From Kiritimatiellia bacterium (GTDB lineage Bacteria > Verrucomicrobiota > Kiritimatiellia > RFP12 > JBMNHG01): DNA of 17,268 bases. Shown here piece after piece: positions 792-16,167 of this stretch. A program made the position numbers and the translations under genes. Each line of letters opens with the position of its first letter. The stretch's first letter is position 1. The notes beneath the pieces were generated by a model. The model made no database searches and had not been told where the DNA came from. It was given only the letters and a program-made list of their open reading frames with translations. The DNA is taken from contig JAZQOE010000063.1 in NCBI GenBank assembly GCA_045627705.1, positions 1 to 17,268 on the forward strand, read 5' to 3'.

Positions 792-950
792 TGTCGTAAC
801 ATCCAAGCCTCTCAGAATAAGGAACTCTATGTCTTTAGCCCGTCTTCATCGCTTCGCGATTCCGCCGTGGCACCAGTCTCCGTTGCCACTTCGTGCCAAC
901 TCCGCCTTGCCAGTCGCATCGCCTTCGGCGTTGGCCTGCCAAGGCGGAAT

Positions 951-2959: not shown

Positions 2960-3478
2960 TCAGGCCAATAACACGCGCCACAGCAAGGCGGCAACAAGCA
3001 CCAGTATCCATAGCGAAAGCAGGCTTTCCAACAGATACCAGACGCGGCCCAGGAGCAATGCCATCGCATTCGGGCGAGATGCCATGATAACGCCGTTGAG
3101 GAAGGCGAAGACGATGTTGCCAGCGATCGCGACGAGGACGGCCCATATCGTGAAGCGCAGAACCTTGCCGTGGACAACCTTTTTGCCTGGCGCAGCGAAA
3201 CCTGTCTGCAGGAGATTTTTCCAAACGACCGGCTCGGAAGCGAGGCGGTCGGCATAGAGCCCGGCATTCTGCGCCTTCTCTTCCTCGGTCCATTCGACCA
3301 AGGGCTTTGTCTGCATTGGATCAACGGCAGGAATCGCCTTTGCGCAGGCGCCGACGCCGAAAACCGCGAGGACAATTGCCGCTACGCAAGCGGCGACGAT
3401 ACCAATGCGGCGGATTGCTTTTCCGCGGCGATACTTCACAAGGCGTTCCTGAACTTCCTGGTCTGTCATCTCTGCCAT
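2960..3478 (-). CDS. Small polytopic inner-membrane protein of unknown function, encoded between the ESCRT-III-like gene and the Vps4-like gene.
   Basis: The track ORF starts 8 codons earlier on a weak start. I use the ATG at 3476-3478, which is preceded by AAAGGGGAAA 6 nt upstream. Product MAEMTDQEVQERLVKYRRGKAIRRIGIVAACVAAIVLAVFGVGA... has one N-proximal and two or three C-terminal hydrophobic helices. Its stop is 15 nt upstream of the Vps4-like ATG, suggesting translational coupling. Confidence 0.7.
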   Translation of the reverse strand: MAEMTDQEVQERLVKYRRGKAIRRIGIVAACVAAIVLAVFGVGACAKAIPAVDPMQTKPLVEWTEEEKAQNAGLYADRLASEPVVWKNLLQTGFAAPGKKVVHGKVLRFTIWAVLVAIAGNIVFAFLNGVIMASRPNAMALLLGRVWYLLESLLSLWILVLVAALLWRVLLA

Positions 3479-3521
3479 GTTGATTTCCCCTTTTCGACGC
3501 ATGCGATGCGATGGCGGTCGA

Positions 3522-4169
3522 TCATTTGCCGTCGAGGATGCTCTTCACGCGATCCTGGCCGGCGGACACGCGGGCGTCGATTTCCTTGCCGGCGGCGACG
3601 GGTGTCGCGGCGCCACCGATTTCGGCGGCGACCTCCTGTTCGAGCTGGGCGCCGAGATCCTCCATGCTGGGTATGTAATCCTTGGCGGTACCCGTTGCGC
3701 CCTCCATCTCCTTGTTGTACATCTTTTCCCAGAAACGGTCGCCATCGACCTGTTCGCCGAGGAGGTCCTGGGCGGTATCGAAGACATCCATGACCTTTTC
3801 GGGGTCGATGTTCACGACCTTGTTCAAGGCTCCAAGGGCGTCGGCGAACTGGGCGTCGGAACCCGCGACCTGCATCTTCGTAATGTACTGTTCGAAGATC
3901 CAGCGCTTCTGCTCGAGCTTCACCACGAGCGCCTGCGAGGCGCGGTAGCTGACGAGGGCGCGCTGGGCAGCGGCCTTCTCGCCGTTTTTCAGCGCCTCGC
4001 GGGCGGCGTCCCAACTCTTTTTCGCCTCTTTTTCGAGTTCCATCTGGCGATCCTTCACCGAATCCACGGCCTTTTCGGCGTCGCGGAAGGCATGGCGGCG
4101 CTCGCGGCGCTCCTCGCGTCTGCGTTCGGATGGTGACTTGAAGACGTTGAGAATGTCGGCGATATTCAT
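3522..4169 (-). CDS. ESCRT-III / Snf7-family protein (Snf7 and CHMP4-like helical hairpin with an acidic C-terminal tail).
   Basis: 215 aa with an ATG start and a GGAGTG Shine-Dalgarno. The core KNGEKAAAQRALVSYRASQALVVKLEQKRWIFEQYITKMQVAGSDAQFADALGALNKVVNIDPEKVMDVFDTAQDLLGEQ aligns by eye with the Snf7 and CHMP4 region TKGNKvmAknALkkKK...LE...eqqL...E.A....E...AM..GAKAMK..H..mDIDKVDEtMDEIrEQ. The C-terminal DYIPSMEDLGAQLEQEVAAE is acidic and amphipathic, like an ESCRT-III MIM region. The composition is coiled-coil-rich and is not PspA-like. Confidence 0.75.
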   Translation of the reverse strand: MNIADILNVFKSPSERRREERRERRHAFRDAEKAVDSVKDRQMELEKEAKKSWDAAREALKNGEKAAAQRALVSYRASQALVVKLEQKRWIFEQYITKMQVAGSDAQFADALGALNKVVNIDPEKVMDVFDTAQDLLGEQVDGDRFWEKMYNKEMEGATGTAKDYIPSMEDLGAQLEQEVAAEIGGAATPVAAGKEIDARVSAGQDRVKSILDGK

Positions 4170-4224: not shown

Positions 4225-5388
4225 TCAAGGATTGACTGGCACGGCCGCCTTCGGCTGCATGTTTTCATCGCCGGACACGAGGCTCATCAGCCCCGATGCG
4301 TCGATGCCGAGCGAATCGACCATTGTGCGGTTGGACTCCAGGAGATTGCGGAGGCGTTCGACGGAAAGCGGGTGCGTGCGCGTCGGGACGTCATCTACGC
4401 CGGCTGTTTCCTTCATCGCGAAGAAGAGTTCCCAGAACAGCCTGCCGACAAAGGTAGCCGTGGCCGCAGAATCATTTTCCCCGATCGTGGCGTTGATCAT
4501 GGTCGAAGCAAACGAATCCGCCTCGCGCTCCTGGTTGCGCGAGATGTCGAGGTTGTCGTTGATGGTGGAATCGCTGGAATCAAGGTGGCCGAGGACATGG
4601 TGGCCGATCTCATGCGAGAGGGTGCCGGCGACCATTCCCCCGGAAATAGCCTCCATGCCAGACATGAAACTTGGATCTCCGAGATCGGCGGCGCTGATGC
4701 CGCTGTCAATCAAAATGGAAATCGCGTCTTCCTTCGGCATCCTGCCAATCGAACCGATCAGTCCGACGAGCCGTTCGAGGCATTTGGAATCCTCGCCAAG
4801 CGCCATCCTGCGGGAATCCGCCGCTGATGCGCACCCGACAAGCCTGGCGAAATTCCATGCACCGGCGTTGAATTTGATAATCCGGCAGATTTCGCCGCTG
4901 GAATCATCCTTGCGTTTCGTTGCGAACGCATTGATTTCATCGTTATCGTTGTATTCAAGGCGTATGGAGTCGGCGATCGGCTTATAGATCTGATTCTTGG
5001 AAACGGCGTCGTTTGCGATCAGGCTTCCGAATATTTCGGCGAGTCTCTCGTGCGGGGCGTCGAAAATGGGGCCAAAGACCCCGTACTGTCCATTGTCGCT
5101 TGCGCTTCCGGCATTATTCTGCGCCTCCGTTCCGGTGGTCTCGCCTGACGGCCGCGGGCAACGGCCGAAAAGAGGCATTAGCCAGCATCTGACGCCAAAG
5201 AATGAAAGGAACACCAGTACAAGCGCTATCAGGGAGAACCACAGCCAGAATGTGCCGTTGCCGACCTTGCGCTGGCGGGAATATGGCATGGGAGTATCCA
5301 CTGGCGAGGCGGTGTGCGTCGTGCCAAGCCGACGTTCATATTCCTGCTGGAAGATTTCCTTGCGGGTCTTTTTCGGTTGTTCTGCCAT
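4225..5388 (-). CDS. Membrane-anchored HEXXH zinc metallopeptidase. The catalytic motif resembles the ImmA/IrrE (M78, DUF955) or M48 families.
   Basis: 387 aa with an ATG start and a GGAGTGAA Shine-Dalgarno. An N-terminal TM helix (WLWFSLIALVLVFLSFFGV) is followed by HEIGHHVLGH and, ~25 aa on, SRNQEREADSFA (Glu third ligand plus EA(D/N)xFA). This spacing fits ImmA/IrrE-type metalloproteases, although M48 has a similar SR..E.eADaFA motif. Confidence 0.7.
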   Translation of the reverse strand: MAEQPKKTRKEIFQQEYERRLGTTHTASPVDTPMPYSRQRKVGNGTFWLWFSLIALVLVFLSFFGVRCWLMPLFGRCPRPSGETTGTEAQNNAGSASDNGQYGVFGPIFDAPHERLAEIFGSLIANDAVSKNQIYKPIADSIRLEYNDNDEINAFATKRKDDSSGEICRIIKFNAGAWNFARLVGCASAADSRRMALGEDSKCLERLVGLIGSIGRMPKEDAISILIDSGISAADLGDPSFMSGMEAISGGMVAGTLSHEIGHHVLGHLDSSDSTINDNLDISRNQEREADSFASTMINATIGENDSAATATFVGRLFWELFFAMKETAGVDDVPTRTHPLSVERLRNLLESNRTMVDSLGIDASGLMSLVSGDENMQPKAAVPVNP

Positions 5389-5461: not shown

Positions 5462-6061
5462 TTAGAACACAAAACCGAGAATCGGCGACTGGCGGCCGCT
5501 GCCGGACTTGTTCCAGAGGCCGATCTGGAGCCCCATGCCGCATTCCGCGATGTTGAGGATGCCTATCTGGAGGCCGTTCAGCTCCTTTGTCCTGTTCACA
5601 AACCCGCCGATCGCGATGCCGCTGAAACTCTCCGACTTGTTGCCGAGGACATTGACGGCCAGACCACCGGCGTCGCGGTCGCATTCGCCGAACAGCCCGA
5701 GGTCGATGCCGAACATATCGACTGGCTTCGCGCCGATGTTCGGGAAGCTGAGGTTCACGCGGACGCCATAGACCGAGCAGTTGTCGAGCGGCGGGACGGA
5801 GAGCGGTCCGACCGTCAGCGCAAACGGCGATGTCGTCTCCTCCAGCACGACTGGATCGGCTACGACAGCGGTGGCGACAGGCGCGGAAAGATTGATTGGC
5901 GAAACAGGCACCACTGGCAATGGCGCCGGGGCGACAACTACCGATGGCGCAGCAGCACCGCCATTATCGACCGAACCGCGACCGAACGGGGCGTACTCCG
6001 CATCGGCAAAAGCCATGCAGGCCGCGACAGAGGCCATGGCCGCAAACAAGATATTCTTCAT
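5462..6061 (-). CDS. Secreted protein of unknown function, paralog 1. Signal peptide, conserved GLQIG-repeat C-terminal domain ending in Phe, possible small outer-membrane beta-barrel.
   Basis: The track ORF 5462..6328 over-extends. I use the internal ATG at 6059-6061, giving MKNILFAAMASVAACMAFA (signal peptide). The C-terminus ...ELNGLQIGILNIAECGMGLQIGLWNKSGSGRQSPILGFVF is shared with the next gene. Confidence 0.7.
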   Translation of the reverse strand: MKNILFAAMASVAACMAFADAEYAPFGRGSVDNGGAAAPSVVVAPAPLPVVPVSPINLSAPVATAVVADPVVLEETTSPFALTVGPLSVPPLDNCSVYGVRVNLSFPNIGAKPVDMFGIDLGLFGECDRDAGGLAVNVLGNKSESFSGIAIGGFVNRTKELNGLQIGILNIAECGMGLQIGLWNKSGSGRQSPILGFVF

Positions 6062-6102
6062 GACAAGTTCCTTCAAATGCGCCGGCATGCGGCGTAACCG
6101 CA

Positions 6103-6669
6103 TTAGAACACGAAACCGAGGATCGGCGACTGGCGACCGCTGCCGGACTTGTTCCAGAGGCCGATCTGGAGGCCCGAACCGCAATCGGCGATGTTGATGA
6201 GGCCGACCTGGAGGCCGTGGAGTTCGTGGGTCCGATTGAGGAATACCGAAATCTGGATGCCTTCGAACACGCCGGGGCAGTCGTTGTCGAGGACATTGAC
6301 CCAGAGTCCGCCGCCATCGCGGCGGCACTCGCCGCTGAGGCCGACATCGACCGCGTACATGTCTATCGGCACATCGGTCACCTGCGGGATACCAAGATTC
6401 ACTCCGACGCCGTATAGGTTCAAGTCGTGGAGGAAAGGAATGCTGACAGGCCCGATTGTCAGGGCGAACGGGGTGAATCCCTCGCCGAAGTAGTCAGAAC
6501 GCGGGACAACCGGGGGATTCTCCGGATAAACAGTTTCATAGCCGGCACCAACCTTGTGCGGGGATACCAAGCTGGCGTCTCCAGGCCTGACTACCGAATA
6601 AGGGGCGGCTTGGCAGGCCGCGGCCAGCACGAAAAATAGCGAGACAGATGCGAACAACGACTTTTTCAT
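6103..6669 (-). CDS. Secreted protein of unknown function, paralog 2. Signal peptide, same conserved C-terminal domain.
   Basis: 188 aa with an ATG start. MKKSLFASVSLFFVLAAACQA is a signal peptide. The body is conserved with paralog 1 (SPFALT.GP.S.P......YGV.VNL.......D.....D.GL.GEC.RD.GGL.VNVL.N...GI.I..F.NRT.EL.GLQ.G.LNIA.CG.GLQIGLWNKSGSGRQSPILGFVF). Confidence 0.75.
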   Translation of the reverse strand: MKKSLFASVSLFFVLAAACQAAPYSVVRPGDASLVSPHKVGAGYETVYPENPPVVPRSDYFGEGFTPFALTIGPVSIPFLHDLNLYGVGVNLGIPQVTDVPIDMYAVDVGLSGECRRDGGGLWVNVLDNDCPGVFEGIQISVFLNRTHELHGLQVGLINIADCGSGLQIGLWNKSGSGRQSPILGFVF

Positions 6670-6736: not shown

Positions 6737-7618
6737 TTATAACGGGCGGTGGACGTTAAGCTCTTCGATCGTGTAGATGCGGTTCATTATGCCGTCGGGG
6801 AAGAAACTGCGGTCGTAGAGCACATCGACCACGATCGTGCGCGAGGCATTGCTTGTCGAAACGACATGGCAGTCATAGACGCCATCGAGACGTGTGAGCA
6901 CGTCGCAGAAAAGCGACGGGTAGTCGGAATGGCGGTCAAGAAACCAGGCGTTGGCGATAGTGATGCGGCTGATTTCCATCTGTCCGGCCACCTTGAGGCA
7001 GCTTTCGGCCGCCCACTTCGAAACCGAATCGGCCATCTTGGAGGAGACATCGCGGATAGCCTCTTCGCGGGAACGGGCCTGCTCGCCCTGCGCATCAAAC
7101 AGACGATGCGCCACGACTCCGGCCTCCTTGCGGCCGTTAACCGCGTTGACCTCTGGACTGCGGGTCACGGAGAAATCAATCTCGCCCCTGTAAACAAGGC
7201 GCGAACCGCGGGAATTGCGCTCGGCGCACTTGACCTTGCCATAGACGAGCAATTCGGCGGGGACATCGTAAACGACGCTGAAACCCTGGCCCGACAGCAC
7301 ACCCTCGACATCCGCGCGAAGGTAGTCGCAGAGCGTGGCGGCATCGTCGTCGACCGGTTCGAGGCTGAGGTACGTGCGGAGCGGAACGACCTTGGCTGTC
7401 GCCGTGGCCTGGACTTGCGTGCCATTGGTCTCATCTACCGGCTGGGCGCTGACGGCGACGTATTGTCCGCCCTGGCCAACATATTGGGTGCCGCCAGTGA
7501 CGTGCTGGTCGCCTCCAGCGTAGTTGACGTACGGATAGGCGGTGCGGCAGCCAGACAGGGCCATGGCGGCGGCAACGGCCGCGAATGTCATTGCCCAAAT
7601 AGAAACCTTGCTGTTCAT
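6737..7618 (-). CDS. Lipoprotein of unknown function.
   Basis: 293 aa. MNSKVSIWAMTFAAVAAAMALSGC has a lipobox (LSGC), followed by a Gly/Gln/Tyr-rich linker and then a globular domain. GC3 is coding-like. My by-eye coordinate for the start differs from the track by 1 nt, so I use the track. Confidence 0.75.
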   Translation of the reverse strand: MNSKVSIWAMTFAAVAAAMALSGCRTAYPYVNYAGGDQHVTGGTQYVGQGGQYVAVSAQPVDETNGTQVQATATAKVVPLRTYLSLEPVDDDAATLCDYLRADVEGVLSGQGFSVVYDVPAELLVYGKVKCAERNSRGSRLVYRGEIDFSVTRSPEVNAVNGRKEAGVVAHRLFDAQGEQARSREEAIRDVSSKMADSVSKWAAESCLKVAGQMEISRITIANAWFLDRHSDYPSLFCDVLTRLDGVYDCHVVSTSNASRTIVVDVLYDRSFFPDGIMNRIYTIEELNVHRPL

Positions 7619-7643: not shown

Positions 7644-8861
7644 TCAGCGGACTCGGATCATCGTGTGCGTGACGAACCATACGATTGCCAGGACGACGAC
7701 CAAGAGGATGAAGTTACGCGGTGTGATGACGGAGCGGAACCACGTGGCGAGCAGTTCAAGCCAGTCTGGGCTATAGACACCGCGGCCCTGGGCGGCGGCA
7801 ACGACCTTGAAGCTGTTGCCGATGTCGCGGAACTTGACGTCTGTCACGACCTCGTACCTGGTGTTGTAGCCCGGGGTGGTCGTAAGGGTCAAGCGGTCGA
7901 GGTTCTTGCCCGTCGGGTCAAGGACGATCGTTCCGTTGTCATCGGAGACGGTGACGCTCCCGTTCAAGACAGCCATCCGGCCATCGCGGACATTGGGACC
8001 GAGCTTGCGGGTCAACTGATCAAGCACCGAGTCGCTGAACTGGATGTTTGTCCCGGCGCGCTGGCGGAGGAAGCGGGCCATCATGCGGTCGCTTGCGCCA
8101 CCATTCGGAAGGTCGTACACCACGATGCTATTCTGGCGGCCCTGCCGCGTGACCTCGTTGAGGAACACCTGCGACATAGCGCGCCCAAGAGGCCCGTCGA
8201 AGGGAATCAGGAACGAGCCATAGCCATCGACATCGGCCGGGATGTTCCTGACGAGTTCCTCGGCCGCCAATTCGACGGCGCGCCGCCATTGGGCAGGGAG
8301 TTGCTCGTTGTCTGGACCCATGTCGTCGTATGTGCCTTCGACCGTGCCGCTCCACAGCAGTTCGGATGTCTCGACCTTGTAGAGCCGGAGATTGACGCGG
8401 ACGATCGTCCTGAAGGAATTTTCCTGGGCGCCGACAACCTGGCCGAGCAGGAGTGCGTCGGCGAGTTTCAACTTGCCGATGACGGGGAGGACATTCTTGG
8501 CGTAATCGGTGAAATCAGATGCCTGGTCGAAGACCTTGTCGATATCCTTCCACTCCTCGCGGTCGCTGTGAAGTACGAATCGGAAGTCGGCGGGGACTTG
8601 TCCAAGCGCACCCTCGAAGATGAGGGAGATGTCGGAATCGGATGCGAACATGCCCTGGCTATCGGATGTCATCAACCTGGTGAAAGCGATGTTTTTCGTG
8701 CCCGCGACGCGCGGGTCGAGAGACATCTGCATGATTGCCTGAAACGCCGCGTCTTCGACGGCGTATTGCGCCTCGAGCTGCCCGGCGACAACCGGAGCGG
8801 CCGCGAACAGGGCGGCTGCAACGCAGCCTTTGAACCAACCAATGGTCTTTGTGAAGTTCAT
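7644..8861 (-). CDS. Secreted, C-terminally membrane-anchored protein of unknown function.
   Basis: The track ORF starts 13 codons earlier. I use the ATG at 8859-8861, which has an AGGAAAGG Shine-Dalgarno. MNFTKTIGWFKGCVAAALFAAAPVVAG is a signal peptide. A ~360 aa soluble region ends in a hydrophobic anchor NFILLVVVLAIVWFVTHTMIRVR. Confidence 0.7.
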   Translation of the reverse strand: MNFTKTIGWFKGCVAAALFAAAPVVAGQLEAQYAVEDAAFQAIMQMSLDPRVAGTKNIAFTRLMTSDSQGMFASDSDISLIFEGALGQVPADFRFVLHSDREEWKDIDKVFDQASDFTDYAKNVLPVIGKLKLADALLLGQVVGAQENSFRTIVRVNLRLYKVETSELLWSGTVEGTYDDMGPDNEQLPAQWRRAVELAAEELVRNIPADVDGYGSFLIPFDGPLGRAMSQVFLNEVTRQGRQNSIVVYDLPNGGASDRMMARFLRQRAGTNIQFSDSVLDQLTRKLGPNVRDGRMAVLNGSVTVSDDNGTIVLDPTGKNLDRLTLTTTPGYNTRYEVVTDVKFRDIGNSFKVVAAAQGRGVYSPDWLELLATWFRSVITPRNFILLVVVLAIVWFVTHTMIRVR

Positions 8862-8909
8862 GGTGTTAACCTTTCCTATTTGACAGAAACAGACAAGCAT
8901 TCAAGAAAT

Positions 8910-9857
8910 TCAGCCCAGTTCCGGGCTTTCGGTTATGCCGTCGCGGTCGCGTGACGGCCTTTCCGGCATTGTTTCATCGGCCGATGCGACGGGAGTGGCG
9001 GCCGGGTCGGCGGCGGGGACATCCCACGCGCCATCGGAATCGAACTCCGAGAGCGCGGCGTCGAAGGAACCGTCGTCGCGATCCCTCCTGCGGCCGGCCT
9101 TGTCGAGGTCGCCAAGAGCATCCTGGAGATCCTCGGCATCATCGGACTTCTCCTCGATGGTATCGGCAAGACGGTCCACCATGTCCTCGTCGAGCGGGCC
9201 GCGAAGCCCATGGGCGAGCACCTCCATGAAACGACCCTTCACGCTGGCGATCGACTTCTCGTTCTCGCAAAGCAGCGCGTATTCCCGTTCCAGGCCCTTG
9301 TACTGGGCCATGAGCGCCTCGAGTTCCATCTTGAGGATGCGGCGGCGCACTGGCGAAGCGGCTTCGTACGCCTTCTTCTTCTCGACAATCCCGCGATAGG
9401 CGGCGTCGAGTTCGGCGGAGGCGGCGTCGCGGCGGCGGCGGTTGCCGTCGAGGGCGCCGTTGAGCGAAACCAGCATCGCTTCCGGCGACCGATCCACGTG
9501 GATCTTCGACCAAAGGCTGCGCAGTCCGCCGCCGACCTTGCCGGCGAACGAGACGGCCTCCGCCATCGCCTTGGCGGCGAGTTCCTTCGGGGCGGACTTG
9601 ACCAGCTCGGCCTCCCGCAGGTCGCGCTCGCCCTCCGCCCTTTCGTTTTCCTTGTCCATCTTCTCCCCTTCCTTTCGGTCCGCCGCCTTCGGCGCCTTCC
9701 CGTCTTCCTTCCAGCCATGCGCGGGGCAACGGCCATTCCCGCCATGCGCGTGGAGCTGGCAGAACACGGCCTCGCAACCCGGTTCCGCGCAATGGCCGCC
9801 AATCGCCCAGCGATTGGGAAGCACCTGTTGGCAGATACAACATCTCGGTTCAGCCAT
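8910..9857 (-). CDS. Zinc-finger protein whose central and C-terminal region is ESCRT-III/Snf7-like (second ESCRT-III paralog).
   Basis: The track start is TTG. I use the ATG at 9855-9857, which has a GGGGTG Shine-Dalgarno. The N-terminus MAEPRCCICQQVLPNRWAIGGHCAEPGCEAVFCQLHAHGGNGRCPAHGW carries 8 Cys/His ligands (treble-clef, B-box or FYVE-like spacing). A Lys/Glu-rich linker follows, then helices RRRILKMELEALMAQYKGLEREYALL...GPLDEDMVDRLADTIEEKSDDAEDLQDAL that parallel Snf7 alpha2-alpha5 (…mDIDKVDEtMDEIrEQvElgDEIsDAI). The tail DDGSFDAALSEFDSDGAWDVP is acidic. Confidence 0.6.
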   Translation of the reverse strand: MAEPRCCICQQVLPNRWAIGGHCAEPGCEAVFCQLHAHGGNGRCPAHGWKEDGKAPKAADRKEGEKMDKENERAEGERDLREAELVKSAPKELAAKAMAEAVSFAGKVGGGLRSLWSKIHVDRSPEAMLVSLNGALDGNRRRRDAASAELDAAYRGIVEKKKAYEAASPVRRRILKMELEALMAQYKGLEREYALLCENEKSIASVKGRFMEVLAHGLRGPLDEDMVDRLADTIEEKSDDAEDLQDALGDLDKAGRRRDRDDGSFDAALSEFDSDGAWDVPAADPAATPVASADETMPERPSRDRDGITESPELG

Positions 9858-9935: not shown

Positions 9936-11276
9936 TTATTTTTGTTTATTTTTCTTATATTTCTTATACACGGGATTGTATTCCGTCACGCGAATGAGTC
10001 CCGCAGCACTTTGGAATTCCATCCCTGGTTCAAGAACGCCCGAACCTACGTTGCCGGTACTCCAGAAGAAGCCGCCGGCATCCGACCGCGCCACGATGAA
10101 ACCAGCGAGCGCAGGGATGACGACGCCGAAATCGAAGCATGACCAAAGGGCAACGAAGACCTCCGGATAGTCGTTTTTCTGCTGGATTACCACGCATGGC
10201 CTGATGCCGGTGCCGCACCAATCGCGCGATGGCACCTGGCAGACCGGGCACAGGCCGGCCGCCATCGGACTGTAGTATGCCACGGAAAGGGAAAAACTGC
10301 TTTCGCAACCCGTCGCGGGCGTGATTACGCCGGAATTGTGCGCCGCGTCGAGTATGCAGGCCTCCCCGGAAATGCGCGTGCCGTTCCAGAAGGTGCCGCA
10401 TGATGATGCATCCTTCAGGATCACCGAGGATCCCGCGCCGCAGATTATGCAGTGGTGGCGGCTGATCCTGCTTGATGCCGCATGCTCCTCGGCCGTCGTC
10501 TGGCATTTCTCCTGGAGAACGATCGTGTTGTCGCGGTGGCGCCCAATGGTGATTTCCTCCTTCGGGATAAGATGAATCAGAGTGCCGGCGATTTCAAGCG
10601 TGAGGTCTCCGCTGTAGGCGGGCGCCGTCTGCGCCGCCGCACATTGCGCCTGGGGCATGCTCGTCAGCTCCAGCGGCACGAGACGATAGGCGCGCGCTTC
10701 GCCATCGACCACCCTGCGCAGTTCCTCGAAGGAACTTTCGCCGGAATGCCGCAGCGAAAGGTCCTGTATGGCGTCGGCGGCATCCTGGGAAAGCCTGACG
10801 TCGGCAGCATGGCCGCATTGGATGTCGTTTCGGATGTTGAATACTATGTTTTCGGCGCACTTGCCGACCTCTTCTGAACGCGCGACGAAAAACGAGACAT
10901 TTCCGTCGAAGCTGTACGCTACGCCGTTCAGCACGAATGAAAGGATGATGTCCAGGGCATGGACGCCGGCGATGCCCGCGTCGATCTGCACGTTGTACTC
11001 GCGCATCGCCGCGAGAATCTGCCAGTTCTTGCTGTATTGCCTTCCGCTGCCCTGGAAACAGAGCGACAATGTCACATCCGAAAGGAATCCCTGTGCCTGG
11101 ATTGCCGGGCCGATGCGGAAGCGGAGGATGCCACTGCCGCGTTCGATGAGAAAGCAAAGGCTGTCGATCTCAAGCCTGACGGGGCAGTCGCCCGCCTGTG
11201 CCGCGAGCGGACTCCCGCATCGGTCGCAGAACTCGCCGGTGGCGGCGTGGCTTCCACATTTTGGACAAGTGGCCAT
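9936..11276 (-). CDS. Zinc-ribbon / FHA-domain protein, paralog B. N-terminal zinc ribbon, central FHA domain, conserved Cys-containing C-terminal domain of unknown function, Lys-rich tail.
   Basis: 446 aa with an ATG start. The N-terminus MATCPKCGSHAATGEFCDRCGSP is a zinc ribbon. FHA-like ITIGRHRDNTIVLQ...SRISRHHCII...GSSVILKDASSCGTFWNGTRISGE fits GR..N.IVL...SR.HA.I...D.S.NGTfvNG. The C-terminus WCGTGIRPCVVIQQKNDYPEVFVALWSCFDFG...GGFFWS...LEPGMEF...VTEY is shared with paralog A. The terminal VYKKYKKNKQK is encoded in the AT-rich island. Confidence 0.8.
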   Translation of the reverse strand: MATCPKCGSHAATGEFCDRCGSPLAAQAGDCPVRLEIDSLCFLIERGSGILRFRIGPAIQAQGFLSDVTLSLCFQGSGRQYSKNWQILAAMREYNVQIDAGIAGVHALDIILSFVLNGVAYSFDGNVSFFVARSEEVGKCAENIVFNIRNDIQCGHAADVRLSQDAADAIQDLSLRHSGESSFEELRRVVDGEARAYRLVPLELTSMPQAQCAAAQTAPAYSGDLTLEIAGTLIHLIPKEEITIGRHRDNTIVLQEKCQTTAEEHAASSRISRHHCIICGAGSSVILKDASSCGTFWNGTRISGEACILDAAHNSGVITPATGCESSFSLSVAYYSPMAAGLCPVCQVPSRDWCGTGIRPCVVIQQKNDYPEVFVALWSCFDFGVVIPALAGFIVARSDAGGFFWSTGNVGSGVLEPGMEFQSAAGLIRVTEYNPVYKKYKKNKQK

Positions 11277-11303: not shown

Positions 11304-12809
11304 TCACACGCCGGACTGGCGGTAGGGCGTTACCGCGACCGGTCCGTACGCCGAGTTGAGGGACATTCCGGGAACCAGGCGCCCGACATGGTGCTGCGGC
11401 GAACTCCATGCGAAACCGCCATCGGCACGCTTGATCCAGATTCCTTCCAGTCCGGGATCCGCATTGCCGAGGTTGAAGCATGACCAGAGCGCGACGAAGG
11501 TCTCGCGCGGGCCGTCGTTCGAGACGATGCGCAAACAGGGGCGACATCCGCCGCCGCACCATTCGGGTTTCGGGCCGACATCGCACGAACGGCAGAAATC
11601 GCAGGGCATGAAGGCGCGGATCCCGAAGGAAAACACGTCGTCGCCCGGCATTCCGCCAAGGAACACATCGGCTCCATCGTCGCCGATGAAATCGGTGATG
11701 TCCGCGGCGCCTTCGACATGGAGGACGCCCCAGGCCGCCGCGCCGCGGGCGCAGTCGAAGTATGTCCCGCGCGTCGATGCGATGCGCCCGCCGCGGTCGT
11801 CGACGGAGCCGTCGTGGAGCATCACGCGGCCCCCGTCGCAGTCGAAGTAGCAGTGCATGCGGCTCACCTTCCTCGTGTCGAAGCGCTCGCGGGCGTTGCC
11901 GAGCGTCCCCGGACGTACCACGATGGTATTCGAGCGACTGCGGCCGAGAAGAATCCGATTGCGCGCCACGAGGTGTATCATTCGCCCCTCCACGTTGAGG
12001 GTGATTGCGTCGGATGAATCATGCGGCGCGGCCGCATCGCCGAGTTCCTGCGCCCTGAAAGCCATGGCCTGGGGATCGCCTGCGGCCCCGGCCATGCGGA
12101 CGCTGGAAGAAGCCGCGCCAACGGCTCCACCAGCCGCGTAATTCGCGGTGAAGGCAGCGGGCGACACTCCGATAGACGGGCCGACACCCGGACGCGGCGA
12201 CCTCATTGGCATGGCCACGACTGGCTTGACCGGCACGCCCGGGACAAACGCGGGATGCGGGACGACCGCGACCGCCGGGGGAACAACCGAAACCGCCGGC
12301 ACCGGCGCGATAGCCAGCGAGGGATGCGACACGACCACCTGCGGCGCAGCGGGATTGACAACCGTCACTCCTGGATGGACTGGCGCCGCGGGCGGAACCG
12401 CGGAAACCACGGCCGCAGGCGGAGGCGGCGCGGCTACGACCGGTGCAGACCCGGCGAATGGCGGCGGAACAGGGCCGGGAATGGCGGCTGCGGCGCCAGG
12501 GATCACGGCCGCCGGAACCACGCCGGGGGCGACCGGAGCGACCACCGCCTCTGGAAGGGGGCTGGGCATCACGGTGGCGGCATGGCGCAGATAGCTATTT
12601 GACGGCGCAACCTGTGGCACGGCCGGCATCTCCGGAACAGCCGGAAGTCCAACCGGCGAGACAGCCGCCGCGACTTCGCCAGACATGGCATCCACCGGAG
12701 GTGTCGCATCCGATGCCGCGGAAGGCGCGGGCATCGCCAGCGGCGCACCGCAGCGCTCGCAGAAAGCGCCTGGCGATACATTGAATCCGCATTTGGGGCA
12801 CTTGACCAT
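11304..12809 (-). CDS. Zinc-ribbon / FHA-domain protein, paralog A. N-terminal zinc ribbon, ~180 aa Pro/Ala/Val-rich disordered linker, FHA domain, same conserved C-terminal domain.
   Basis: 501 aa with an ATG start and a GGGAAG Shine-Dalgarno. MVKCPKCGFNVSPGAFCERCGAP is a zinc ribbon. FHA-like ILLGRSRSNTIVVRP...VSRMHCYFDCDGGRVMLHDGS...STRGTYFD. C-terminus WCGGGCRPCLRIVSNDGPRETFVALWSCFNLG...GGFAWS...LVPGMSL...VTPY (~45% identity to paralog B over ~85 aa). Confidence 0.8.
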   Translation of the reverse strand: MVKCPKCGFNVSPGAFCERCGAPLAMPAPSAASDATPPVDAMSGEVAAAVSPVGLPAVPEMPAVPQVAPSNSYLRHAATVMPSPLPEAVVAPVAPGVVPAAVIPGAAAAIPGPVPPPFAGSAPVVAAPPPPAAVVSAVPPAAPVHPGVTVVNPAAPQVVVSHPSLAIAPVPAVSVVPPAVAVVPHPAFVPGVPVKPVVAMPMRSPRPGVGPSIGVSPAAFTANYAAGGAVGAASSSVRMAGAAGDPQAMAFRAQELGDAAAPHDSSDAITLNVEGRMIHLVARNRILLGRSRSNTIVVRPGTLGNARERFDTRKVSRMHCYFDCDGGRVMLHDGSVDDRGGRIASTRGTYFDCARGAAAWGVLHVEGAADITDFIGDDGADVFLGGMPGDDVFSFGIRAFMPCDFCRSCDVGPKPEWCGGGCRPCLRIVSNDGPRETFVALWSCFNLGNADPGLEGIWIKRADGGFAWSSPQHHVGRLVPGMSLNSAYGPVAVTPYRQSGV

Positions 12810-12827: not shown

Positions 12828-14762
12828 CTACTTGATATTGTTGAACTGCTGCGGCGGAGGAAGCGGCTGAATAGCCTTCTTCGCCGCCTCGTTGATCGGG
12901 GAGAGAAGCGTTCCCATGCGGCTGTCCTCTCGGTCGTAGGAATCGTCGTGGAGATCCTCCACCTTCTTTACGAAGCGTTCCGCGTCCTCGCGCGTCTTGT
13001 CCAGCTCGACCTGCTTGAGCCTTTCGAGCGCAACCGCGGCGGCGGGACTCTGGGCCGCGAGAGCCGCGAGTATCTGCTCCGGCGTGCGCGAGTTGTCGGA
13101 GGCGCGGAGCGCGGTGAGCGCGCCAGCGGCGATCGGGTCGGCGTTGTTCGCGGCAGCCTCGGCGAGAATGTGCTCGACATCGAGGGCGGCGTCGCGGTCG
13201 AGCTTGGCCTTCTGGAGCAGGCGAGCGCGAAGGGCGTCGTCATCGACATCCATCAGGCGTTCCTCGAGGGACATGCCGTGGCGGCGGTCGGCCTCGGCCT
13301 GCCTGTAGTCGAGGTTCACCTGGTTCTTTTCGCGGCGGACGCCGATCCACTCCTTCGCCTGGCGGACCTGCTCGTCCGCCGACATCCCGGAAATCTGCGT
13401 GGCATTCGTGGAGTTCTTGAGCGCCTCGCCGCGGTTGAAGTCCCCGATCTTGCCGGCGTTGGCGATGCTGTTATCGACCGCGCGGTCGCCGAGCCCGAAC
13501 TGGTGTGCCTGGTCCTCGTCTTCCACGGTGTAGGCGTGGTGGCGGAGTTCGTCGGCATGGCCGAGGCGCTCTATGTCGAGCATGCGCTGGTAAACTTCGG
13601 CCTCGTGCGAGCGCTCGCGCTTGAGGACTTCCCACTCGTGGTTGATTTCCTCGACCGTCAAGCCATATTCGTTGTTGAGGTCGAGGATGTAGCGCCGCAT
13701 GTCGTCGGCGTCCTTGTACTGCGACATGTTGCCGTGATCGACCGTCTTGCGAAGCGCGTCCCGGTATTCCTCGTAGCGGCGCTGCTGGTCGAGCGTGCGG
13801 CCATAGCCATACTGGGTCTCGTTGTCCTCAACCGAATCGCCGGCATGGGCCGTGACGTTCTGCTCGATGGTGGCGGCGAGCTTCTCGTATTCGTCGCCGG
13901 TGAATTCGGCGGAGGAAACGCGCGCGACTTCGAGTCCGCTGGCGGCCAGGTCATCCGCAACAAGGCGCGTCATCGACTCCTGCAGGCGGATGCGGCGCTG
14001 CGGGTCGCGGACAAGGTCGTCGAGCGTGGTCGCGGTACACATCGAATCGACGGCGAAGCGCATGACGGATTCGAGCCGTGCCGAAATCTCCGCCAGCGAC
14101 GTGCTGCGGTCAGACTTCATCAGGTTGGCCACCAGCGCCCGCGCGGAATCCTTGTCGCCGCGGAAACGGAGTATCACCTCGCCGTAGAATTCGATCGGAT
14201 AGCGCTCGGCTGTCGAAAGCGCCTCGATGTGCACTGGAAACGCCACTTCGGCGGCATCGACCAGCACCACTGAACGCGGCGGCGGATTGCCGAACCAGTT
14301 GATCTTGTGCGCCAGGCTGTCCGGGGCATGGCGGCCGCTTTCGAGGATGCCGCGCACCTCTCCGCCATCCATGATGATCGCGAGCGTTCCTTCCTGGATC
14401 TGGAGGCCGTCCTGGAGGATGCGCTTCACGTCGCCGATCTCGAAGCGCTGGGCGAACATCCCTGGCTCCTTGCGCCATACGCCCCCGGCCATCGCCGAAC
14501 GGTCGTCAGGGTAGAGCGGGGTGTTGCAGTGCGGGCAGAAGCGCGAGTCGTTGCCAATCCACTTGCCGCACGACGGACAGCGCCACCAGCCGCCAGGCGC
14601 AGGGCTGCCGCAGCGGTTGCAGAAGCGGGCGTTCTTCCTCACCCGGTTGCCGCAGCGCGGCCACTTGGGATCAAGCTTGGCCGCCTCGAGGGCATCGCCC
14701 GAAAGCGCCCTCTGCGTGTTTGGATCGATCAAGGCGTCGCAACGGTCTGTAAAGATTCCCAT
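12828..14762 (-). CDS. Double-zinc-ribbon SPFH (band-7 / flotillin-like) protein with a long C-terminal coiled coil.
   Basis: 644 aa with an ATG start and an AAAGGGA Shine-Dalgarno. Two CxxC...CxxC ribbons: RCGNRVRKNARFCNRCGSP and RCPSCGKWIGNDSRFCPHCNTP. The SPFH-like core is IQEGTLAIIMDGGEVRGILESGRH...SVVLVDAAEVAFPVHIEALSTAERYPIEFYGEVILRF...ARALVANLMKSDRSTSLAEISARLESVMRFAVDSMCTATTLDDLV...RIRLQESMTRLVADDLAASGLEVARVSS. A ~330 aa Glu/Arg/Ala/Leu-rich coiled coil follows. Confidence 0.8.
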   Translation of the reverse strand: MGIFTDRCDALIDPNTQRALSGDALEAAKLDPKWPRCGNRVRKNARFCNRCGSPAPGGWWRCPSCGKWIGNDSRFCPHCNTPLYPDDRSAMAGGVWRKEPGMFAQRFEIGDVKRILQDGLQIQEGTLAIIMDGGEVRGILESGRHAPDSLAHKINWFGNPPPRSVVLVDAAEVAFPVHIEALSTAERYPIEFYGEVILRFRGDKDSARALVANLMKSDRSTSLAEISARLESVMRFAVDSMCTATTLDDLVRDPQRRIRLQESMTRLVADDLAASGLEVARVSSAEFTGDEYEKLAATIEQNVTAHAGDSVEDNETQYGYGRTLDQQRRYEEYRDALRKTVDHGNMSQYKDADDMRRYILDLNNEYGLTVEEINHEWEVLKRERSHEAEVYQRMLDIERLGHADELRHHAYTVEDEDQAHQFGLGDRAVDNSIANAGKIGDFNRGEALKNSTNATQISGMSADEQVRQAKEWIGVRREKNQVNLDYRQAEADRRHGMSLEERLMDVDDDALRARLLQKAKLDRDAALDVEHILAEAAANNADPIAAGALTALRASDNSRTPEQILAALAAQSPAAAVALERLKQVELDKTREDAERFVKKVEDLHDDSYDREDSRMGTLLSPINEAAKKAIQPLPPPQQFNNIK

Positions 14763-14808: not shown

Positions 14809-15168
14809 TCACTTCCTAGTCTCATTCTTGCCGGCATTTCCCGCGCAATCCTTGCAGAGGCGCAGGCCAAGACGCGTCCAGCAGTCATTGCAGATCGGCG
14901 CCGCGCAGCCATCGCCCTGGCAGTGGTGCTTCAGCGACACGCGGCTGCGATAGACGTTGCCGCAGATAGAGCATTCGCCACCGCCGGAATTCTCGCGCTT
15001 CTTGTCCTCGAGATACACATCGAGGTCGGCGCGTGAAACCCTGTACAACTTTCCAAGGCGAAAAGCCGGAAGTTCGCCACTCCGCGCCAGTTTGTAAACG
15101 AGCTGATAGGTCACGCCGAGATAATCGGCGACCTCTTCAAGGCTCATATACTCTTTATCGGTTGGCAT
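14809..15168 (-). CDS. Excisionase/MerR-superfamily HTH DNA-binding protein with a C-terminal zinc-ribbon domain. Likely regulator and first gene of the cluster.
   Basis: 119 aa with an ATG start and an AAGGA Shine-Dalgarno. SLEEVADYLGVTYQLVYKLARSGELPAFRLGKLYRVSRADLDVYLE matches the excisionase-family HTH (HTH_17-like). C-terminus CSICGNVYRSRVSLKHHCQGDGCAAPICNDCWTRLGLRLCKDC. Confidence 0.8.
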   Translation of the reverse strand: MPTDKEYMSLEEVADYLGVTYQLVYKLARSGELPAFRLGKLYRVSRADLDVYLEDKKRENSGGGECSICGNVYRSRVSLKHHCQGDGCAAPICNDCWTRLGLRLCKDCAGNAGKNETRK

Positions 15169-15399: not shown

Positions 15400-16164
15400 G
15401 TGAGATTGTACACAATATTTCGCTCCGCCCTTGTGGCGGCACTTGCGGCGTCGGCGAACGCCGCGATCCAGTTCGACGCATCGTTTGCGCCGTCGCTGGA
15501 GACGAACGGAGATGATGTCGTCTCGTGGGTCTCAACTTCCGGCGAAGCCGCGATCCATCCATGTCACGGCGCGACGAACGGCTGGACCTTGGCAAGGATC
15601 GCCGAGAATGGCGTGGACTTTTCCGGCACGCCCGCCGGGGTCGCTTCCCCGCTCTGCTTCCAGGACTCCGCGACGGGGATGGTCGGACGCATGTTTGCCG
15701 TCGCCGACTGCATCGCGCCGTCGGCGCTCTCGACCATTGTGGACGCGCCCGTGCCGGTGCGCGTCTCCGCGCCGCTTTTCGACGCCGACGGGTTCACGGT
15801 CGAGGCGACAAACGCGCTTGGCGTCGCACATGTCGAGCTGGACGGCGTGGAAGGCGGGGCGGTCGATGCCGGGCGGCATGTCGTCGAAGTTGCCTTCGAC
15901 GAACCCTGCGAGATGCGCGGGATTTTCATTGGCGGATGCCCCGCGACGCCCGCGTGGCGGCGCTCGTGGAACGGGACGATCCGCGAGGTCGTGCTTCTGC
16001 CGCCGGGAGCGACGGGCGAGGAGCTGGCGACCGTGCGGGCGTATCTCGCGAAGAAGTGGGATCTGGCGAGGCGTCCGTCGGGGTTCGCAAACGAGCTATT
16101 CATCGCGAAGCGCCTCGGACTCCGCGTGGGGAGCCTCTACGGCTCGGTACTGATGGTGAGGTAG
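15400..16164 (+). CDS. Secreted protein of unknown function.
   Basis: No in-frame ATG. The start is GTG (15400) or TTG (15406). (M)RLYTIFRSALVAALAASANA-AIQ is a signal peptide with an AXA cleavage site. GC3 is strongly biased. The stop lies 3 nt before the next ATG. Confidence 0.6.
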   Translation: MRLYTIFRSALVAALAASANAAIQFDASFAPSLETNGDDVVSWVSTSGEAAIHPCHGATNGWTLARIAENGVDFSGTPAGVASPLCFQDSATGMVGRMFAVADCIAPSALSTIVDAPVPVRVSAPLFDADGFTVEATNALGVAHVELDGVEGGAVDAGRHVVEVAFDEPCEMRGIFIGGCPATPAWRRSWNGTIREVVLLPPGATGEELATVRAYLAKKWDLARRPSGFANELFIAKRLGLRVGSLYGSVLMVR

Positions 16165-16167
16165 CGA

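Follow-up and report, generated by a model that had tools for sequence, protein, structure and literature searches.

Reviews place Snf7-type ESCRT-III with an AAA ATPase in archaea and eukaryotes, not in bacteria (PMC7619361, PMC8281802), and a further study agrees with the archaeal/eukaryotic placing of ESCRT-III and Vps4 (PMC10936438). According to a 2025 review, a Vps4-like ATPase is apparently missing from bacteria, and the Vps4 ATPase is absent from the PspA systems (PMC7619361). A comparative study reported sporadic bacterial Snf7 and Vps4-like genes, without the system described here (PMC11237479). The archaeal 'Halo_FHA' and 'Meth_adaptin' systems combine a Vps4-type ATPase and ESCRT-III with FHA proteins, Ser/Thr kinases and zinc-ribbon SPFH proteins (PMC10936438). 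A zinc-finger-headed ESCRT-III is not described by Makarova et al. 2024 (PMC10936438).

We analyzed a window of 17,268 nucleotides from a Kiritimatiellia bacterium, in which the genes of a 315-aa protein, a 215-aa Snf7-like protein and an AAA ATPase lie in one cluster on one strand, together with an HTH_17 regulator. The clustering of the 315-aa gene with the Snf7-like and AAA ATPase genes, pointed out in an earlier note on this DNA, was borne out, and the linkage is conserved across related loci. The genes discussed here are:

1802..2944, minus strand, AAA ATPase gene (Pfam AAA, 1.4e-34)
3522..4169, minus strand, 215-aa Snf7-family protein with a MIM1-like C-terminus (Pfam Snf7, E 8.7e-5)
8910..9857, minus strand, whole gene of the 315-aa zinc-finger-headed ESCRT-III-like protein (ORF list and sequence)
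14809..15168, minus strand, HTH_17 regulator gene of the cluster (Pfam HTH_17, E 1.3e-15)
14839..14976, minus strand, second eight-ligand finger copy, C-terminal residues 65-110 of the HTH_17 regulator (finger HMM)

The cluster recurs in MAGs of Kiritimatiellia, Lentisphaeraceae and Verrucomicrobia in the order HTH, ZnR-SPFH, ZnR-FHA, Snf7, AAA, the 315-aa gene, envelope proteins and M48-like peptidase. The FHA, kinase and zinc-ribbon SPFH accessory set of the archaeal 'Halo_FHA' and 'Meth_adaptin' systems is likewise found in this cluster and its relatives, whereas their wH (ESCRT-II-like) or adaptin-like components were not seen in the cluster. Unlike these archaeal systems, it adds an envelope set of secreted, lipoprotein and outer-membrane-like proteins, and the M48-like peptidase. 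What is added here is a conserved bacterial cluster in which a Snf7-family protein and a classic AAA ATPase are joined by another ESCRT-III-like protein of far greater divergence, and a domain architecture of a zinc finger on an ESCRT-III core; no published account of this architecture or of the 315-aa family was found. The cluster opens with an excisionase-type HTH gene and a tmRNA gene is located nearby. Neighbours of relatives include STAND-like ATPases and proteases of caspase-like and papain-like type.

The 315-aa protein is real and conserved and not a chance ORF. The claimed reading frame was confirmed with its finger, charged linker, helical core and acidic tail; it has an ATG start, preceded immediately 5' by a Shine-Dalgarno-like GGGG-rich stretch, and its stop codon is at 8910-8912. 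An alternative in-frame TTG is located 21 nt upstream of the ATG and is an unlikely start, because the homologues start 5-8 residues ahead of the first Cys. The family is unannotated: 167 homologues were detected at E<=1e-3 among 5.8 billion proteins, every one without annotation, and 105 cluster representatives came from a profile search run exhaustively over 1.84 billion. This closed set of 105 gave no bridge to annotated Snf7 families among the 1.84 billion, and Pfam Snf7 was absent in its remotest members. The alignment of 30 family sequences has 47 invariant columns. The AF2 model of the 315-aa protein (mean pLDDT 78.8) and the alignments divide it into the following segments:

9717..9842, minus strand, residues 6-47, predicted cross-brace binuclear zinc finger (ligand pairs C6/C9, C23/C28, C33/H36, C44/H47)
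9561..9707, minus strand, residues 51-99, Lys/Glu-rich helical linker, poorly conserved, variable in length and partly helical (AF2)
9492..9560, minus strand, residues 100-122, conserved amphipathic segment before alpha1, 'KLGGGxKxLWxKI..RSPE' (alignments)
9204..9485, minus strand, residues 125-218, long helical hairpin, alpha1 125-166 and alpha2/3 169-218 (AF2 pLDDT 93-98)
9093..9188, minus strand, residues 224-255, alpha4, DEDMVDRLADTIEEKSDDAEDLQDALGDL, the most Snf7-like stretch (PDB match CHMP4B)
9033..9074, minus strand, residues 262-275, alpha5-like motif, DDGSFDAALSEFDS (family consensus DFDAELAGFD)
8913..9032, minus strand, residues 276-315, acidic disordered tail, non-conserved (pLDDT below 50; unalignable across the family)

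The Lys/Glu-rich linker, the helical region with GPLDEDMVDRLADTIEEKSDDAEDLQDAL and the acidic C-terminal tail (net charge -6) were all found as the earlier note had described them. The predicted topology of hairpin, alpha4 and alpha5 is an ESCRT-III-type helix layout. The amphipathic helix 103-120, directly before alpha1, has a hydrophobic moment of 0.43, compared to 0.42 for alpha0 of E. coli PspA, and the segment 100-122 is from its sequence a candidate alpha0 membrane-binding helix. In the alpha5-like motif, F265, L269 and F272 are invariant in the alignment of close homologues, and AF2 models residues 265-272 as a short helix; the motif aligns with the DEDELxxEL alpha5 of Snf7, CHMP4B and CHMP5. 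The net charge of the 315-aa protein is -10 in alpha4 and -3 in the alpha5 segment, and across the family the hairpin has a mean charge of +2.6 (range -1 to +7) and alpha4-alpha5 of -12.5 (range -19 to -5). The ESCRT-III charge pattern, with a basic hairpin ahead of a C-terminal half that is acidic, is present, although the hairpin is basic only weakly.

We compared a core profile of 31 diverse sequences to a B-type ESCRT-III profile (Snf7, CHMP4B, CHMP6, CHMP5) by hhalign. The probability was 92% (P 6.7e-7, score 47.9, 154 columns), and the alignment ran in order from the residues preceding alpha1 to alpha5. None of the 100 block-shuffled controls reached this score (mean 20.8, sd 4.2, max 33.1), and the reversed template scored 23.0. 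With a mixed ESCRT-III profile the probability was 77-84%, and the shuffled null was 15.8 +/- 2.7. For the B-type reference sequences, the Pfam check (Snf7 E from 2e-16 for CHMP1B to 1e-58 among the ESCRT-III references) confirms membership of the Snf7 family only, not identity with exact database entries. The similarity did not extend to A-type ESCRT-III (none by hhalign) or to PspA (0.7%).

Most of the ESCRT-III sequence signal sits in the acidic alpha4-alpha5. This sub-profile alone scored 28.2 against the B-type profile (P 7e-6; permuted null 8.2 +/- 1.6), and the hairpin alone scored 20.0 with a reversed control of 19.9, that is, no independent sequence signal. The hairpin aligns in order with Snf7 alpha1-alpha3 (hhalign; HMM match to the Snf7 core 5fd7). 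The sole match of the full-length profile to PDB sequences was alpha4-alpha5 of CHMP4B. The HMM-to-sequence search of the PDB placed Snf7 at E 0.27, outranked by designed coiled coils and Rad50; among the matches listed, only the Snf7 core spans the greater part of the profile, with 128 positions in order, and the rest are short and local. No Pfam Snf7 or PspA match to the 315-aa protein was detected at E<=1, and NCBIfam likewise gave nothing. Within the family, 5 of 30 members match Pfam Snf7 (best E 0.039), under the 27.3-bit cut-off, and PspA_IM30 appears in a single distant member at E 0.33, below threshold.

In the structure comparison by Foldseek, the top match among 350,542 PDB chains was the Asgard ESCRT-IIIB filament 9ftl, with a homology probability of 0.99 but an E of 0.19. 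The Foldseek search proposed in the earlier note put ESCRT-IIIB first, at this weak E-value, and the curated models stayed below their cut-offs. The Snf7 alpha4-alpha5 likeness claimed there was recovered by sensitive methods only. On these sensitive methods the ESCRT-III reading of the helical core is supported. We consider it likely that the 315-aa protein is a highly divergent B-type (Snf7/Vps20/Vps60) subunit of the ESCRT-III superfamily, with a cross-brace finger on a flexible charged linker.

The same data bear on another explanation, a generic helical-hairpin or coiled-coil adaptor that is not an ESCRT-III descendant and whose finger and hairpin would link other cluster components with the ATPase or the Snf7-like protein. 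Such a protein would be comparable to CdvA, 'steadiness-box' or arCOG08707 hairpin proteins, would not form ESCRT-III-type polymers, and would have an acidic amphipathic helix that came to resemble alpha4-alpha5 by convergence. The silent hairpin, the failure in the curated family models and the dissimilarity of the adjacent Snf7 family agree with it, as do the non-ESCRT-III hairpin proteins found beside archaeal vps4 by Makarova et al. (PMC10936438). We find this explanation unlikely: the in-order full-length score is far above that of the alpha4-alpha5 piece and above every shuffled control, the helix order, helix lengths, S-P cap before alpha1 and DEDELxxEL-like alpha5 are in register with Snf7, and an ESCRT-III filament came first in Foldseek.

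As a probable divergent ESCRT-III subunit, the protein shares with B-type ESCRT-III (Snf7/CHMP4, Vps20/CHMP6, Vps60/CHMP5) and Asgard ESCRT-IIIB the order and approximate lengths of alpha1-alpha5, the S-P cap, the 'D-x-D-x-V-D-x-L-x-D-x-I-E...DA' alpha4, the 'D-E-D-E-L-x-x-E-L'-like alpha5, a weakly basic hairpin with an acidic C-terminal half, and a gene found with that of an AAA ATPase. It differs in being bacterial (PVC group), not archaeal or eukaryotic, in the weakness of the basic charge of its hairpin, in falling under the Pfam Snf7 threshold and in having no recognisable MIM (no MIM1 consensus in its non-conserved tail). It also differs by about 100 residues of finger and linker in front, so that the alpha0-like helix is internal; in finger-less relatives the helix is at the very N-terminus. 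With PspA/Vipp1 it has in common a bacterial, hairpin-based family, here putatively membrane-associated, but not sequence similarity to PspA, and the ATPase of the cluster is, in contrast to the PspA systems, a classic-clade AAA, as is Vps4.

The head of the protein is supported as a genuine eight-ligand zinc module by prediction. The spacing is C6-x2-C9-x13-C23-x4-C28-x4-C33-x2-H36-x7-C44-x2-H47; C6, C9, C23, C28, C33 and C44 are invariant across the family, and H36 and H47 are conserved with Cys as the sole substitute. The count of eight Cys/His ligands given in the earlier note is therefore correct, but its motif string has one spacer off by one residue and includes the histidines H22 and H38, which are both non-conserved. 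Ligand pairs 2 and 4 are lost jointly, suggesting interleaved ligation with pairs 1 and 3 on one zinc and pairs 2 and 4 on the other. A four-ligand form occurs in a rumen clade, where one zinc per chain would be expected instead of two. The fold, a small beta-hairpin and a helix, is closest to ZZ/PHD/RING. No curated finger model is passed by the family; zf-CRD is the best match (3e-4, 21.5 bits against a cut-off of 26.3), and zf-RING_2 (0.003), zf-AN1 (0.0035) and zf-HIT (0.05) also stay below cut-off. The profile search of the PDB gave no significant relative of the finger, with the AN1-type ZFAND1 as the top zinc-finger match (E 5.3).

Ten finger sequences gave no match to the FYVE model at E<=10, and the 315-aa sequence lacks the basic phosphoinositide-binding motif of FYVE, R(R/K)HHCR. 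The classification of the finger called for in the earlier note gave a two-zinc module of cross-brace type, nearest to ZZ/PHD/RING and not FYVE, and the analogy to the FYVE and NZF fingers of eukaryotic ESCRT components did not hold. The family's finger resembles the ZZ/PHD/RING/AN1 fingers in its eight ligands in four pairs, interleaved ligation and beta-hairpin plus helix; what sets it apart is a conserved 'LPNR(W/Y)A' insert of its own, which separates pair 1 from pair 2. The AN1 consensus has the same middle C-x4-C-x2-H spacing. The finger is encoded at every untruncated genome locus of close homologues. One apparently finger-less close homologue (P0104) was ruled out as such, since its start codon is miscalled and an in-frame stretch ahead of it codes for the finger.

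We detected a second copy of this finger on the HTH_17 regulator of the cluster. Among 4,494 ORFs, the finger HMM matched the 315-aa homologues and HTH_17 tails and nothing else, with E-values for the tails of 5e-4 in the window and 2e-6 (L014), 2e-5 (L011), 6.5e-5 (L020) and 7.8e-5 (L016) in related loci. All eight ligand columns match between the HTH_17-tail finger and that of the 315-aa protein. One finger type on both proteins probably means a common partner or finger-finger binding, and suggests a possible wiring of the polymer to gene expression. As an idea only, this is like the PspA-PspF circuit, here with an ESCRT-III-like protein tied to the operon's transcription factor through a shared finger; PspF is a sigma-54 AAA activator, whereas the regulator here is an HTH_17 protein.

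The 215-aa protein belongs to a family with many PF03357 members, some named 'Snf7 family protein' by NCBI. Its hhalign probability against eukaryotic ESCRT-III is 94-95%, and its C-terminus aligns with the MIM1 region of CHMP1B/2A. The two proteins share cluster, strand and a similar core length, and both accompany the AAA ATPase across PVC loci, very remote ones among them; the 215-aa protein differs by the lack of a finger, the MIM1-like C-terminus and a family that reaches Pfam Snf7. The earlier note had called the 315-aa protein a paralog of it. This is unproven, because the profile-profile comparison of the two families detected no similarity (probability about 1%, with both narrow and diverse-core profiles), and a recent paralogy was dropped. 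A split of the two into A- and B-type, parallel to Asgard ESCRT-IIIA/B, was also rejected: the hairpin of the 215-aa protein is likewise nearer to B-type, and therefore the cluster has no clean A/B pair. A heteropolymer of the 315-aa and 215-aa proteins, as the earlier note envisaged, would be plausible.

The AAA ATPase aligns with the NCBIfam CdvC model over residues 91-377 (8e-49, below cut-off), CDC48 and PAN models scoring higher, and its HMM scores place CdvC no nearer than Cdc48 or PAN. With VPS4B it shares 31% identity (BLASTP, residues 20-337). No Pfam MIT or Vps4_C match was detected, and its N-terminal domain compared to three MIT sequences gave a probability of 0.7% (hhalign), a negative or underpowered comparison. 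Its pore-loop sequence, SKWHGESE, is similar to SKWLGESE of Vps4. Of 14 distinct loci whose upstream sequence is long enough, 12 have the ATPase gene <=10 kb from the 315-aa-type gene. In 10 loci the 315-aa-type gene directly follows, its start within about 25 nt of the AAA end, and at locus L002 the two genes overlap by 4 nt.

This tight spacing and overlap, the higher score of CDC48 over CdvC and the zf-AN1 match in one family member would fit a protein acting chiefly as a cofactor of the AAA ATPase or as its substrate adaptor. Its finger would dock on the ATPase, like AN1 and other small fingers on Cdc48/p97 cofactors, and its helices would serve for oligomerisation only, with FHA-bound phosphoproteins or targets of the M48-like peptidase as possible substrates and no membrane remodelling. 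We regard this as improbable. Distant relatives of 187-196 aa have no finger and still adjoin genes of Snf7-like (Pfam 4.6e-5) and AAA type at the remote loci L021 and L022, and therefore the helical core, not the finger, is the conserved partner of the ATPase. These relatives end in a MIM1-like 'ELSxSxxxRLKEL', and a homologue search seeded with them returned 7 proteins only, 0 of them annotated. The occurrence of the finger on the HTH regulator also argues for a regulatory or targeting role. Since the core resembles ESCRT-III, the classic Vps4 substrate, the cofactor explanation largely merges into that of a divergent ESCRT-III subunit.

For such a subunit, we propose polymerisation of the helical core on the cytoplasmic side of the inner membrane, with the 215-aa Snf7-like protein as a probable co-subunit. 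The acidic half formed by alpha4-alpha5 may fold onto the weakly basic hairpin and keep the monomer closed until recruitment, and the AAA ATPase of the cluster would disassemble or remodel the polymer. The zinc finger could be a recruitment or regulatory handle, with a targeting role like that of myristoylation and ESCRT-II binding for Vps20. Its copy on HTH_17 could couple the assembly state to operon transcription, as for PspA and PspF.

More broadly, and tentatively, with somewhat more doubt than confidence, Kiritimatiellia, Lentisphaeria and related PVC bacteria may have a complete phosphorylation-regulated ESCRT-like machine. It would consist of two mutually unrecognisable Snf7-type subunits, one of them finger-headed, a Vps4/CdvC-like AAA ATPase, FHA, kinase and SPFH accessories as in archaeal ESCRT, and periplasmic and outer-membrane proteins. 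The finger shared with the HTH regulator would be a feedback link from polymer assembly to transcription. If true, Snf7-type ESCRT-III with an AAA ATPase is not limited to archaea and eukaryotes, and PVC bacteria, which are known for unusual internal membranes, have a dedicated membrane-scission or repair system. If confirmed, the cluster would be a bacterial setting for the study of two-subunit ESCRT-III assembly, with a bearing on ESCRT-III paralog diversification and on a possible archaea/PVC transfer of the system.

The gene content of the cluster could also be read as an anti-phage or abortive-infection module, with the 315-aa protein as effector or sensor, damaging or sealing membranes on infection; we judge this very improbable. 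Weak matches of the M48-like peptidase to Lit, peptidase_U49 and CapP-type models, matches of the ATPase to IetA/IteA models, the proteases and STAND-like ATPases beside relatives, the excisionase-type HTH at the cluster start and the near tmRNA gene are in line with such a module. Against it, Cdc48, PAN and CdvC match the AAA protein far better than IetA does, and PADLOC and PHROGs match only the generic AAA and HExxH domains, with none for the 315-aa and Snf7-like proteins. The gene order is fixed class-wide with the envelope proteins, which is more like a housekeeping envelope machine.

A search of 5.8 billion clustered proteins detected 167 homologues (E<=1e-3) of the product of the 8910..9857 (-) ORF (ATG start, 315 codons). 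All of them are unnamed or 'hypothetical' and have no precomputed Pfam domain; their source MAGs carry the labels Kiritimatiellae, Verrucomicrobia or 'bacterium'. A profile search without filters over 1.84 billion representatives gave a closed set of 105 clusters in all; therefore, the family is real, conserved and narrow. The remaining long ORFs across this stretch are overlapping frames of the same high-GC region. In public annotations, the called start of several close homologues is an internal Met, which leaves the zinc finger out. One of them is P0104, where the in-frame sequence before the annotated start encodes the finger (related locus L001, 9836-10000). Every untruncated genome locus encodes the finger too, and caution is due with close homologues that seem to lack it. 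P0040, P0056, P0069, P0082, P0088 and P0114 probably have the same finger-omitting start call.

The AlphaFold2 model of the protein, built with a 30-sequence alignment (mean pLDDT 78.8), predicted the following parts:

Residues 1-41: small N-terminal domain (pLDDT about 90)
Residues 64-99: charged, variable helices
Residues about 103-120: short, conserved amphipathic stretch
Residues 125-166 and 169-218: very confident hairpin (pLDDT 93-98)
Residues 224-255: further helix
Residues 265-272: short helix
C-terminal tail: disordered

The Cys/His head, Lys/Glu linker, helical region with DEDMVDRLADTIEEKSDDAEDLQDAL and acidic tail described in the earlier note were all recovered, with one spacer miscounted there. 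Residues about 100 to about 275 are conserved across the family; the hairpin is weakly positive in net charge (family mean +2.6) and segment 224-275 strongly negative (family mean -12.5).

No Pfam or NCBIfam model matches the protein, and Pfam Snf7 is matched weakly by 5 of 30 family members (best E 0.039). The full-length profile had a single match among PDB sequences, CHMP4B alpha4-alpha5 (E 6.7). The core-only profile matched Snf7 core structures in order over 128 positions (E 0.27), with designed coiled coils and Rad50 scoring higher over short stretches. These HMM-to-sequence searches are suggestive of ESCRT-III kinship and not significant.

The diverse core alignment of the family (A4; 31 sequences, 18-63% identity to the target) was compared with ESCRT-III reference alignments of seven eukaryotic sequences, which were checked against Pfam Snf7 and match it with E from 2e-16 (CHMP1B) to 1e-58. 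With the B-type set (Snf7, CHMP4B, CHMP6, CHMP5), hhalign gave a probability of 92% (P 6.7e-7, score 47.9) over 154 columns in order, from just before alpha1 through alpha5. The null was 20.8 +/- 4.2 (max 33.1; 100 templates, 14-column block shuffle) and the reversed template scored 23.0. A mixed ESCRT-III template gave 77-84% (null 15.8 +/- 2.7), and the neighbouring Snf7-like family, the positive control, reached 94-95%. Splitting the alignment placed most of the signal in alpha4-alpha5, which by itself scored 28.2 (P 7e-6) versus a permuted null of 8.2 +/- 1.6, while the hairpin by itself equalled its reversed control (20.0 vs 19.9). At the level of profile comparison, homology to ESCRT-III is demonstrated for alpha4-alpha5 only, and hairpin homology rests on architecture.

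We conclude that the target very probably belongs to the ESCRT-III superfamily, as a divergent protein of the Snf7/Vps20/Vps60 kind, a membership based on sensitive profile comparison and context, not on curated models. The core idea of the earlier note, an ESCRT-III-like protein headed by a zinc finger and clustered with Snf7-like and AAA genes, survived this testing. The similarity to ESCRT-III or PspA profiles expected of its helical region holds for B-type proteins and alpha4-alpha5; profile comparison of the core detected none to A-type ESCRT-III, E. coli PspA or the neighbouring bacterial Snf7 family, which leaves the name 'paralog', given to the target with respect to this neighbour, unproven.

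The cluster genes are all on the minus strand:

14809..15168 (-): HTH_17 regulator, first in the cluster
12828..14762 (-): SPFH/Band-7 protein with double zinc ribbon
11304..12809 (-): zinc-ribbon FHA protein, 501 aa, first of a tandem pair
9936..11276 (-): zinc-ribbon FHA protein, second of the pair, directly before the target
8910..9857 (-): the target
7644..8900 (-): 418-aa protein with signal peptide and C-terminal TM segment; weak LpoB and CsgG matches
6737..7618 (-): lipoprotein, 293 aa
6103..6669 (-): small secreted protein, paralog of the product in 5462..6328
5462..6328 (-): called ORF containing the second copy of the small secreted protein
4225..5388 (-): membrane-anchored HExxH metallopeptidase, M48/Lit-like; weak M48, peptidase_U49 (Lit) and CapP-like matches
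3522..4169 (-): 215-aa Snf7-family protein
2960..3502 (-): predicted small TM protein, 180 aa, between the Snf7-like and AAA genes
1802..2944 (-): AAA ATPase, 380 aa, last in the cluster

A long low-complexity linker in the 501-aa FHA protein is rich in Pro/Ala/Val, and local GC reaches 0.69. At its AAA end, the cluster is flanked by a tmRNA gene (976..1330 (-); Rfam 174 bits), whose tag is ANDMALAA, and by a small ORF with a GIY-YIG domain (540..806 (-), Pfam 4e-12). Downstream of the cluster, 15400..17268 is very GC-rich (0.69), with long overlapping ORFs on both strands, including a 254-aa ORF (15400..16164 (+)) with no Pfam match.

The two ORF calls for the small secreted proteins overlap, and the true start of the longer one is probably the internal 'MKNILFAAMA...' signal peptide. 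Both paralogs share the C-terminal GLQIGLWNKSGSGRQSPILGFVF, ending in Phe, a terminal residue frequent in outer-membrane proteins; neither has a Pfam match. The C-terminus of the 215-aa Snf7-family protein (EIDARVSAGQDRVKSILDGK) aligns by MAFFT with the CHMP1B, CHMP2A and CHMP3 MIM1 region and may be an ATPase-binding motif.

The loci comparison by tblastn (17 genome loci plus three metagenome or assembly places) detected the same gene set in Kiritimatiellia, Lentisphaeraceae and Verrucomicrobia MAGs, usually in the order HTH, SPFH, FHA, Snf7, AAA, target, 418-aa protein, lipoprotein, small secreted protein, M48. In 12 of the 14 distinct loci having upstream sequence, the AAA gene is <=10 kb from the target; in 10 of these 12 the target start is at most about 25 nt from the AAA end, and in L002 the two genes overlap by 4 nt. 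The 418-aa protein and lipoprotein come after the target in most loci; therefore, the cytoplasmic ESCRT-like proteins seem coupled to envelope components. In nearly all loci, homologues of the small secreted proteins are conserved downstream of the target, and the metallopeptidase is kept at the cluster end in many. None of the 20 related loci gave a tblastn match to the 180-aa TM protein, and so it appears confined to this contig.

The most distant family members (187-202 aa) are finger-less, with an amphipathic helix at the very start and a MIM1-like C-terminal end, 'ELSxSxxxRLKEL'. Two of them (L021 8001-8591 and L022 8001-8564; 187-196 aa) belong to clusters that encode Peptidase_C1 (papain-like) proteins, Peptidase_C14 (caspase-like) proteins, of which some carry an FGE-sulfatase domain, and a protein that matches CsgG very weakly (E 0.077). 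This cluster type is possibly a second version of the bacterial ESCRT-like module. The finger-less relatives adjoin a Snf7-like protein of about 220 aa (Pfam Snf7 4.6e-5) and an AAA ATPase in these differently composed loci, and thus the association of these three (target family, Snf7-like protein, AAA ATPase) outlasts the change of all other genes. Among the contextual arguments for joint action of the two helical proteins and the ATPase, this persistence is the strongest.

The ATPase is a single-domain, classic-clade AAA protein. The NCBIfam CdvC model covers it nearly end to end (residues 91-377, 8e-49), and BLASTP gave 31% identity over residues 20-337 to VPS4B. Since the NCBIfam CDC48 and PAN models outscore CdvC, p97/Cdc48 dominates the PDB matches and the MIT domain looked for could not be demonstrated, 'Vps4-like' is plausible, not established.

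According to a 2025 review, a Vps4-like ATPase appears absent from bacteria (PMC7619361). A comparative PSP study reported sporadic bacterial Snf7 proteins and Vps4-like transfers into bacteria with an unrelated gene replacing snf7 (PMC11237479). The archaeal ESCRT systems of Makarova et al. (PMC10936438) include FHA proteins, kinases and a zinc-ribbon SPFH protein, the same accessory set as in the present cluster and its relatives. Ser/Thr kinases are additionally present in some related clusters; the window has FHA (phospho-Thr reader) proteins and no kinase within 17 kb. Large Ser/Thr kinases fused to FGE-sulfatase, TPR or Sel1 were observed at L001 (3870-6392, 14671-17490) and L002 (178-6614). 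The full-text searches on ESCRT in bacteria, Kiritimatiellae among them, gave no description of the present system.

Among 16 diverse aligned heads, C6, C9, C23, C28, C33 and C44 are invariant, and Cys is the sole replacement of H36 and H47. A rumen Kiritimatiellae subclade has jointly lost pairs 2 (C23/C28) and 4 (C44/H47) and kept pairs 1 (C6/C9) and 3 (C33/H36), the pattern expected of a cross-brace in which pairs 1 and 3 would bind one zinc and pairs 2 and 4 another. The analogy to FYVE or NZF fingers drawn previously does not fit.

The finger HMM, searched against 4,494 six-frame ORFs (all ORFs of the window and 22 loci), matched only target homologues and C-terminal tails of HTH_17 regulators (window 5e-4, L014 2e-6, L011 2e-5, L020 6.5e-5, L016 7.8e-5). 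The window's excisionase/MerR-like regulator has a predicted eight-ligand cross-brace finger at its C-terminal end (residues 65-110), with all eight ligand columns aligned to the target finger (C-x2-C-x13-C-x4-C-x4-C-x2-C-x8-C-x2-(C/H)). In the clade with the four-ligand target finger, the regulator still has all eight. The finger common to the operon DNA-binding protein and the ESCRT-III-like protein suggests a common ligand or finger-finger contact. Operon regulation would be coupled to the ESCRT-III-like protein through these fingers, by a logic similar to the PspA-PspF regulatory coupling.
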